Shown here in pieces: positions 1 through 1,842 of a stretch of DNA of 22,466 bases (positions within the stretch are counted from its first letter, which is position 1; the number at the start of each line of letters is the position of its first letter). Below the pieces are notes generated by a model. That model did no database searches. It saw nothing but the letters and a program-made list of their open reading frames with translations, and was not told where the DNA came from. The position numbers and the translations under genes are program-made. The DNA is taken from the IMG/VR virus record IMGVR_UViG_2648501110_000004; one strand, given 5' to 3'. The stretch is from a virus (taxonomy: Duplodnaviria > Heunggongvirae > Uroviricota > Caudoviricetes).

Positions 1-264
1 TTCACCGTGCCACTCTGTTCGCCGTCAAAGTGCGCCCCGTTATCCACGATGGCCTCTTTTTCCGGCACATGCTGCACGGCGGTGATGGCATACGTGCCGT
101 CGTCGTTCTCACGGATACTCACGCAGCGGAACAGTCGCTGGCGCAGCGTCGGCAGCTTCAGCCCCCATACGCTGTATTCAGCAACACCGTCAGGAACACG
201 GCTCACTTTCACCTTCACGCCGTCGGTGACGGACTGAACCTCCACGCTGACCGGATTACCACTC
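1..264 (-). CDS. J: Continuation of J in the +1 frame (partial, runs off the window start); J is probably a frameshifted pseudogene or the read has an indel
   Basis: Minus-strand frame shifted by +1 from the upstream J frame reads SGNPVSVEVQSVTDGVKVKVSRVPDGVAEYSVW...AIVDNGAHFDGEQSGT with no stop to position 1. This matches the lambda J segment that follows ...LISLVDG. Confidence 0.75.
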
Positions 265-1842
265 ACCGTCAACCAGGCTTATCAGCGTGGTACCGGAGGA
301 TGGCAGCGTGATTTCACGGTCGAGCGTCAGCGTCCGGGTCTGGCTGTTCACCGCCAGCACACGACCACCGATGCTGATACCGGCATAGTCATCATCACAG
401 ATTTCAATAACATCGCCCGGCACATGGCGAAGCCCTTCTGCGCCCACGCTGAAATCCACGGTCTGCGTTTCCAGCAGTTCCGTTTTAATCAGCCACAGCC
501 CGGCGCGGTGTGCCTGCCCCCGACTGGTACAACCAAAGGCATCCATCTTCGTGACGTTACGACCGTAACGGGCAATGGCCTGCGTGTCCTCCACAAGCTC
601 TGTCGCCGTCTCCCAGCCGTTATCCGGGTCAATCCAGTTCACCTCAACGGCATTATGGCGATCCTTCAGGGCGCTGAAACTGTAGCGGAACGGCGCGCCA
701 TCATCCGGCATCACCACATTACTGCGGTTATAGGTCCATACCTTATCCGATGGCCGGTCCTGCACGAACGTCAGCGTCTGCCCGTTCCATACCGGCATAC
801 AGCGCATCGCCGAACAGAAATCACTGAGCACATCCCACGCCTTACGCTGTGTGGTCAGCCACGCATTACAGGTAATGCGCGGCTCCGTGCCGCCAAAGCC
901 GTCCGGCACCGACTGGTCGCAGTACTGGCCGATAACATACAGCGCCCATTTATCCACATCCGCCGCACCAAGACGTTTCCCCATGCCGTAGCGCGGGTGG
1001 GTCAGCATATCCCACAGACACCAGGCCAGGTTGTTGCTGTATGCCGGTTTAAACGTTCCGTCCCAGATACCGCTGTATTGCCGCGTCTGCGGGTTATAAT
1101 TCGACGGCACCTGCAGAATACGCCCGCGCAGATGATAATTACGGCTCACCTGCTGGCTGCCGAACTGCTCCGAATCCACCTGCACGCCGACCAGTGCCGT
1201 GTTCGGGTAGCACTGTTTCACATCGATGATTTCGGTGTATGACGACCAGAGCGTTTTGTTCTGCAGCTGGTCTGTGGTGCTGTCAGGCGTCATCCTGCGC
1301 ATCCGGATATTAAACGGGCGCGGAGACAGGTTATCCACCACCACCGAGGCCAGATACTGCGAGGTGGTTTTGCCCTTAATGGTGATGTCTTTTTCCGTCA
1401 CCCAGCCACCATTACGCTGTATCTGAACCAGCAGGCGAACTTCCGACGGATTCCGGTCCCCCTTTGAGGTGGTTTCCACCAGTGCCTGCACACCGAAGGT
1501 AAAGCGCAGACGGTCGATGTTTGCCGACGTGATGGTGCGGGTGATCGGCGTGTCATATTTCACTTCCGTACCCAGCACCGTCTCGGAGCCGGAGGATTCA
1601 AACCCCTCCGGCGGAGTCTGCTCCTGCTCACCTGCCCGGAACACCACCGTGACACCGGAGATGTTGGTATTCCCCTCACTGTCCAGCACCGGCGTACTGT
1701 TCAGCAGCACGCTTTTTAAGCCATCCACCGGACCTTCAATCGGCCCTTCGCTGATGGCATCAATCACACTCAGCAACTGCGTGGACTTCAGGTTGTCCTT
1801 CGCTTCGCGCGGGGTATGCCCCTTACTGCTGCCTTTACCCAT
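256..1842 (-). CDS. J: Tail tip / host specificity protein J, N-terminal 528 codons; frame ends at an in-frame TAA (256-258)
   Basis: The translation (MGKGSSKGHTPREAKDNLKSTQLL...) matches the lambda gpJ N-terminal region nearly residue for residue as I recall it. GGAG/GAGGA sits upstream of the ATG at 1842. The ORF stops at about half the length of lambda J (1132 aa). Confidence 0.9.
   Translation of the reverse strand: MGKGSSKGHTPREAKDNLKSTQLLSVIDAISEGPIEGPVDGLKSVLLNSTPVLDSEGNTNISGVTVVFRAGEQEQTPPEGFESSGSETVLGTEVKYDTPITRTITSANIDRLRFTFGVQALVETTSKGDRNPSEVRLLVQIQRNGGWVTEKDITIKGKTTSQYLASVVVDNLSPRPFNIRMRRMTPDSTTDQLQNKTLWSSYTEIIDVKQCYPNTALVGVQVDSEQFGSQQVSRNYHLRGRILQVPSNYNPQTRQYSGIWDGTFKPAYSNNLAWCLWDMLTHPRYGMGKRLGAADVDKWALYVIGQYCDQSVPDGFGGTEPRITCNAWLTTQRKAWDVLSDFCSAMRCMPVWNGQTLTFVQDRPSDKVWTYNRSNVVMPDDGAPFRYSFSALKDRHNAVEVNWIDPDNGWETATELVEDTQAIARYGRNVTKMDAFGCTSRGQAHRAGLWLIKTELLETQTVDFSVGAEGLRHVPGDVIEICDDDYAGISIGGRVLAVNSQTRTLTLDREITLPSSGTTLISLVDGEW

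Follow-up and report, generated by a model that had tools for sequence, protein, structure and literature searches.

A net +1 frameshift splits tail-tip gene J on a lambdoid Escherichia coli prophage contig and combines bases of two in-frame allele classes

RESULTS

Late region of a lambdoid prophage on a draft contig

The analyzed stretch of DNA (here called the window; 22,466 bp) is the entire draft contig JHSP01000077.1 of assembly GCA_001266025.1. It comprises the late region of a lambdoid E. coli prophage, with Q, a DNA methyltransferase, the lysis genes, the terminase, the portal, a ClpP-capsid fusion, the tail genes, and J all encoded by the minus strand. Position 1 is a contig end within J, at approximately codon 614. 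The opposite contig end (22369-22466) consists of the first 98 nt of IS1 and is 100% identical to annotated IS1A/IS1B copies; here, a DUF968-family nin-region gene located just upstream of Q is cut by IS1 at approximately codon 119. This IS1 sequence represents either a true insertion in the prophage or, at minimum, the cause of the contig break.

A tblastn comparison with the genes of the E189 prophage, together with public gene calls, placed J after the tape measure gene, M, L, K, and I, as in a tail operon. Each of the 26 other reference genes that matched the contig gave one unbroken alignment, and J was the sole broken gene among those compared, which ruled out a generally poor sequence quality of the window. 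Protein identity to the E189 prophage was 94 to 100% except for an M-like minor tail gene (3910-4233; approximately 55%) and an Rz-like lysis gene (17622-18077; approximately 59%), which have the appearance of exchanged modules, as is common in mosaic lambdoid phages. The DNA methyltransferase gene (350 amino acids [aa], 18969-20018) sits between Q and the holin gene, the interval in which Stx phages carry toxin genes and tRNAs; ARAGORN detected no tRNA genes in the whole window.

J is a multicopy gene. Of 5,426 complete E. coli genomes, 4,590 contain it, at 15,307 places altogether and with a median of 3 per genome. The 90%-identity protein cluster containing the J product of the window has 16,895 members, mostly labeled "partial." Given the copy number and these partial members, J is a gene that often breaks draft assemblies.

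A net +1 frameshift in J

The features of the J locus are as follows (allele classes A and B are defined in the next section).

256..1842, minus strand: N-terminal J (TipJ/gpJ) frame, 528 codons plus TAA
Residues 86-207 of the 528-aa product: FNIII-A_GpJ (PF24801), E = 2.1e-41
Residues 330-497 of the 528-aa product: Phage-tail_3 (PF13550), E = 4.1e-43
264..266, minus strand: GTG, the public gene-call start of a downstream 88-aa fragment, 5 nt upstream of the TAA
264..265, minus strand: dinucleotide TG, where class-A J (including lambda) has a single A; the same as in class-B(TG) GGT-GAG
261..261, minus strand: T, present in class A (AGT) and absent from class B (xAG-GGT)
256..258, minus strand: premature TAA, whose first base (258) is the T of a GGT/GGC polymorphism
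3..263, minus strand: J continuation in the +1 frame, residues 527-613 of the 1131-aa J, open to the contig end

The initial annotation of the window had described a J frame that starts at 1842, encodes 528 residues, and ends at a TAA at 256-258. Reading of the minus strand (GAC GGT GAG TGG TAA at 270-256) and the open reading frame at 256..1842 confirmed this description. The 528-aa product starts with MGKGSSKGHTPREAK. The intact 1131-aa J of a closely related prophage split into two pieces on the window in a tblastn search: residues 1-526 matched in frame -3 (1842-265; 99.0% identity), and the match to residues 527-613 was in frame -1 (263-3; 96.6% identity). The second piece bears out the J-like sequence that had been reported to go on in the +1 frame, as its translation (...SGNPVSVEVQSVTDGVKVKV...) is free of stops up to the window edge. 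The frame thus switches at 265/263, and a single J frame of approximately 1130 codons is absent from the window. Every listed phage or E. coli J match to window positions 1-1900 had 1899 bases for the 1900 bases of the query, i.e., the window carries a net +1. The window sequence thus truly contains the split of J and the net +1, and these show the signature of a frameshift pseudogene: a length change not divisible by 3, after which homology resumes in another frame. With the C allele at 258, the shifted frame would read CAA in place of the stop codon. The frameshift site lies 255 to 265 nt from the J-side contig end. The part of J beyond approximately residue 613, including the Ig_J, Phage_Tail_Tip, and Ig_GpJ_C domains, falls beyond that end; near-identical prophages of other assemblies do carry these domains.

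Comparison with lambda (NC_001416) changed the picture of the lesion itself. A single extra G relative to a lambda sequence GACGGT-AGTGGTAATCC had been proposed. Lambda reads GACGGAAGTGGCAATCC at this junction, i.e., GACGG-A-AGTGGCAATCC, and the window differs from it at positions 265, 264, and 258, three differences within 8 nt. The same lambda allele (GGA AGT GGC AAT) is found in the two closest complete-genome J copies. The GACGGTAGTGGTAATCC allele (GGT-AGT-GGT), which would be the parent for a G insertion, occurred in none of 257 J-site occurrences from other sequences, a nonexhaustive sample. A homopolymer sequencing error, one of the two explanations offered initially, does not fit the context GG-TG-AG-T-GG, which has no homopolymer run. 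The outline of the two alternatives (a tail-defective prophage or an error in the sequence) was correct, although the error would need another mechanism.

Two in-frame allele classes at the frameshift site

We read the J alleles at this site from complete genomes and viral contigs (J loci L003, L144-L146, and L147-L264). They fell into two in-frame classes. Class A, which includes lambda, reads GAC GGA AGT GG[C/T] AAT (D-G-S-G-N); class B, present for example in ATCC 11775 and strain 219, reads GAC GG[T/G] [C/G]AG GGT AAT (D-G-Q-G-N or D-G-E-G-N). Residue 527 is Ser in class A and Gln or Glu in class B. Among the fetched loci, which are not an unbiased sample, we counted 109 A/C, 22 A/T, 45 B-TC, 45 B-GC, and 31 B-TG alleles. 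The diagnostic strings are GACGGAAGTGGY for class A, GACGGTGAGGGT / GACGGTGAGGGTAAT for class B, and GACGGTGAGTGGTAATCC for the window.

Two 1-nt indels only 2 nt apart separate the classes, one of +1 (A versus NN) and one of -1 (T versus none); since they compensate each other, both classes are in frame. In the A/B pair, one frameshift and a later one that restored the frame are preserved as a fossil. Whenever the two classes are mixed, be it in the cell or in an assembler, the compensating indels turn into a frameshift at exactly this position, which accounts for the occurrence of the same "lesion" in unrelated records (see below).

The window allele is a hybrid of both classes

In the window, the class-B(TG) dinucleotide (265-264) occurs together with the class-A T at 261 and a T at 258, and the net +1 results from retention of both the class-B dinucleotide and the class-A T. 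The nearest in-frame allele found was class-B(TG) GACGGTGAGGGTAATCC, which is present in 31 viral contigs and from which the window differs by one extra T; relative to class A, the window has TG for A. The initial annotation had placed a 1-nt insertion near 264; relative to the nearest in-frame allele, the extra base is the T at 261. The flanks of the site resemble class A (593/600 on the left and 248/249 on the right) more than class-B(TG) (585/600 and 239/249, respectively), and the nearest flank markers, at -16 and +13, are class-A-like.

This allele is private to the contig. None of 6195 J places in complete E. coli genomes contained the exact 70-mer (best match, 68/70 over 69 nt), the exact 28-mer of the window allele was not found in the genome, viral, or metagenome collections, and in a set of about 15 billion proteins the 528-aa product came from a single contig. 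A search for a second, independent assembly of the source strain found none, the 528-aa J fragment and the gpK product being unique to JHSP01000077.1, and we found no paper that names the contig accession.

Compared with near-clonal relatives, the window showed 2 to 4 differences in 13.45 kb outside J versus 24 in 1.84 kb of J. At 20 of the 24 differing J positions, the window has the base of a single class-B haplotype group, and these bases are interspersed among class-A bases. J is generally mosaic in the collections, and a null test gave a median of 12.5 parent switches per 1.84 kb. As J is equally mosaic in these collections, we dropped the fine mosaicism of the window as proof of an artifact. 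The interleaving could also reflect a single replacement of distal J by another natural allele.

Several other sources of the hybrid bases were considered and rejected. A patch from a divergent J of the Stx-phage type was ruled out, this type reading AACGG-C-AGCGGTAAG in frame, and a donor motif elsewhere in the window was not found. Escape from a type I-E CRISPR system was likewise rejected: no matching E. coli spacer was found for the AAG-adjacent protospacer in the one strand and register searched, and a repeat-spacer-repeat query matched arrays through the repeats only, in two separate pieces.

Same-site +1 forms in other sequences

Five other assemblies encode the identical 1021-aa tape measure protein and reach J. 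In four of the five, J is of class A and not frameshifted at the site (one of these J genes is cut by a contig end). In the fifth (GCA_049894145.1; here L133), J is split into 526 and 599 aa at the same site, with GC in place of TG. The micropattern of L133 is A-B-A-B-A, as in the window, with a different class-B dinucleotide. All 10 long-contig assemblies with the same gene I carry a class-A J that is not frameshifted. A common ancestry of the frameshifts of the window and L133 was unsupported, as the dinucleotides differ and the two share no exclusive single-nucleotide polymorphisms in 13.45 kb outside J. Poor sequence quality of L133 was ruled out by the presence of only 2 gap openings in 16.9 kb.

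In total, four other hybrids of this kind were found, three with GC (L133, L141, and L143) and one with TC (L142). Pattern scans identified L141 on a viral contig and L142 on a metagenome contig. L143 is the chromosome-level genome of E. coli HMDUC-17, in which the gene (ACZBUU_RS17320) carries GC and GGC and is annotated as "frameshifted" by PGAP. Frameshifted prophage J genes are known and are routinely flagged by annotation pipelines. The left/right flanks of the hybrids are A/A in the window and L133, B/B in L142, B/A in L143, and mixed in L141. HMDUC-17 thus shares with the window the gene, the site, the combination of a class-B dinucleotide with the class-A T, and the net +1, but it has GC, GGC, and class-B-like left flanks, whereas the window has TG, GGT, and class-A flanks and lies at a draft contig end. 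A further +1 at the site, in IMGVR_UViG_2648501437_000009 (approximately 5392-5411; L278), is a class-A allele in which a GG run has become GGG (GACGGGAAGTGGC). Altogether, at least six sequences have a +1 at this site. Viral contigs and complete E. coli genomes yielded no example of the reciprocal -1 hybrid (GACGG-A-AG-GGT). One hybrid was seen among about 7500 J places in complete genomes, and hybrids look rarer there than in draft and metagenome contigs. Since the hybrid J genes are otherwise intact, the lesions are young or artifactual and do not form an old pseudogene lineage.

These sequences also bear on an ordinary single-base insertion unrelated to class A, either of a T into a class-B(TG) J or of a G as initially proposed. 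The window has exactly one extra T compared to GACGGTGAGGGTAATCC, L142 is purely class-B(TC) apart from an added T, and L278 shows that a GG run in class A can appear as GGG. However, both window flanks are class-A-like, including the -16 and +13 markers, a nonrepeat T would have to recur in three class-B backgrounds, and the GGT-AGT-GGT parent for a G insertion was not found. We therefore consider a simple insertion very unlikely.

Predicted consequences for gpJ

Lambda J nucleates tail assembly. A real break would thus leave the phage without tails and not merely without its receptor specificity, so that the initial annotation, in which the broken J was linked to receptor specificity, understated the effect of a lesion that would abolish tail assembly itself.

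In the solved lambda tail-tip structures, the domains of gpJ are arranged in the order hub domains, FNIII-1/2, alpha-helical shaft, central fiber, and receptor-binding domain (PMC11101478). HDIV contains an inserted beta-sandwich made up of residues 483-569, flanked by beta24 (477-482) and beta25 (570-578) (PMC10721106), so that termination after residue 528 would interrupt a folded domain. The 528-residue product would lack the end of HDIV, both Ig/FNIII domains (Pfam 610-818), the fiber (845-972), and the LamB-binding, i.e., receptor-binding, domain (1001-1132). The J of the window is closely related to lambda gpJ (PDB 8IYK, 8XCG, and others), with 96.9% DNA identity over the 1.9 kb present, the same N-terminal Pfam domains, and the same L-K-I-J gene order. 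Lambda J, however, is a continuous gene of 1132 codons, whereas J of the window breaks after residue 526/528 and leaves the contig at approximately residue 613, so that the window encodes neither the fiber nor the receptor-binding domain.

A split J could in principle be tolerated, or be functional and maintained as an allele class, with two polypeptides produced by reinitiation at the GTG at 266-264 or with a ribosomal +1 shift. The public gene call does start at this GTG, 5 nt before the TAA, and the +1 recurs at one site in at least six sequences. Against such a function, J is continuous here in all sequenced phages listed, the GC and TC hybrids have no start codon at the GTG position, and the +1 allele class is very rare. 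By inspection, we saw no Shine-Dalgarno-like motif upstream of the GTG and, within GAC GGT GAG TGG TAA, neither a slippery heptamer nor a prfB-like CUU-UGA context; re-pairing of tRNA-Trp from UGG to GGU is not possible. The break also falls within the folded beta-sandwich of residues 483-569 and not at a domain boundary (PMC10721106). A programmed frameshift would be expected to be conserved among functional homologs, and this shift is not conserved among those listed. Lambda G/G-T resembles the window J in having overlapping tail-gene frames in a lambdoid tail operon but uses a conserved programmed -1 shift on a slippery heptamer, whereas the window J needs a +1 shift, lacks a slippery motif, and has no counterpart in the functional phages listed. 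Rescue of function by reinitiation at the GTG is unlikely, and a functional split as a whole appears extremely improbable.

Another broken gene for comparison is stf, the side tail fiber gene, which is broken by a frameshift in the laboratory strain of lambda (PMC10721106). Both cases represent a single frameshift in a lambdoid tail fiber gene. However, stf is dispensable and the phage stays infectious, whereas tail assembly depends on J, and no phage could survive a real frameshift in it.

Genuine hybrid or merged paralogs

Two main readings differ in whether the hybrid is present in the DNA of the cell. One reading is that a genuine +1 frameshift arose by recombination or gene conversion between J paralogs of different class, and we assign this reading a probability of roughly 0.48. 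Two J paralogs, one of class A and one of class B, would have recombined or undergone gene conversion; the class-B(TG) dinucleotide would have been joined to the class-A T within class-A flanks, shifting the frame by +1; translation would yield 528 residues and end at the TAA, midway through the HDIV beta-sandwich; and the prophage would make heads without tails and would be cryptic unless another prophage supplied J. The other reading is that reads of a class-A and a class-B(TG) paralog were merged and that a consensus or polishing step kept the inserted base of each class, creating a hybrid that has no physical counterpart; in that case the J gene itself would be unbroken, and the prophage might be functional. 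We consider this artifact a serious contender, and the two readings are about equally likely.

The hybrid structure can be read directly off the alignments, an in-frame class-B(TG) parent is available in the 31 viral contigs, and donors are at hand, both classes being common and the median E. coli genome carrying 3 copies of J, all of which favors genuine recombination. The absence of indels in the 26 other genes, on a contig with no other indel defects, and the nature of the change, which is neither a homopolymer-length nor a platform-typical error, point in the same direction, as do the equivalent hybrid in the chromosome-level HMDUC-17 assembly and the IS1 sequence that the prophage already has in the DUF968 gene. 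On the other hand, the site lies close to a draft contig end inside a multicopy gene, and the allele is private according to the 70-mer, 28-mer, and 528-aa product searches. J is not frameshifted in the 10 of 10 gene I assemblies and the 4 of 5 tape measure assemblies described above, and only +1 hybrids, with no -1 form, were observed.

Mixing of paralog reads would be consistent with a contig that stops in J, a gene that routinely breaks draft assemblies, and with the excess of differences in J, most of which come from one class-B haplotype group. The same pattern is seen with another dinucleotide in L133, drafted independently from this prophage lineage, and this recurrence resembles the outcome of a deterministic process more than that of two chance conversion tracts. 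TC, GC, and TG each have their own "+T" counterpart, the reciprocal -1 was not found, and hybrids seem rarer in complete genomes than in draft and metagenome contigs. However, the interleaving of class-A and class-B bases is nondiagnostic given the fine mosaicism of J, and the chromosome-level assembly carries a hybrid too. A simple majority or base-over-gap consensus also fits poorly, because the window has class-B bases at 265, 264, and 258 but class-A bases at -16 and +13.

The type of assembler matters for this comparison. A de Bruijn graph assembler is unable to generate a junction within an interval of 2 nt, or a hybrid on the 8-nt scale, so that an artifact would need a columnwise consensus or polishing step. 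The length of the IS1 fragment, exactly 98 nt, may hint at a de Bruijn graph assembler with k = 99, a weak clue in favor of a genuine hybrid. A k = 99 signal was not seen at the J end, window position 99 being nonpolymorphic among 188 J sequences.

If the genuine +1 frameshift by recombination is correct, the prophage would be tailless and cryptic unless J is supplied in trans, which is of importance solely for predicting phage release by this strain. If the sequence is an artifact, it advises caution, as the multicopy J would be unreliable near draft contig ends. A broader possibility is that the site acts as a natural "frameshift trap," in which conversion between coresident lambdoid prophages recurrently yields +1 hybrids from TG, GC, and TC donors and thereby kills J. 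We consider this generalization doubtful; if true, it would represent a recurrent, recombination-driven route to prophage domestication. The +1 hybrid signature could also mark paralog mixing in assemblies.

Other observations on gene K and L133

Gene K (2448-3191), a multicopy tail gene, likewise bears private variants: its gpK product was found on JHSP01000077.1 only, among 153 billion gene positions, and the gene has two nucleotide differences from that of the near-clonal relative L132. In L133 (SPKX01000029.1), the left end (locus 1-2010) is rearranged, with the terminase truncated to a 370-aa nuclease-domain product that adjoins a gene I fragment from another phage. Beyond its +1 hybrid, the J gene of L133 also has an in-frame 6-nt deletion at J nt 428-433.
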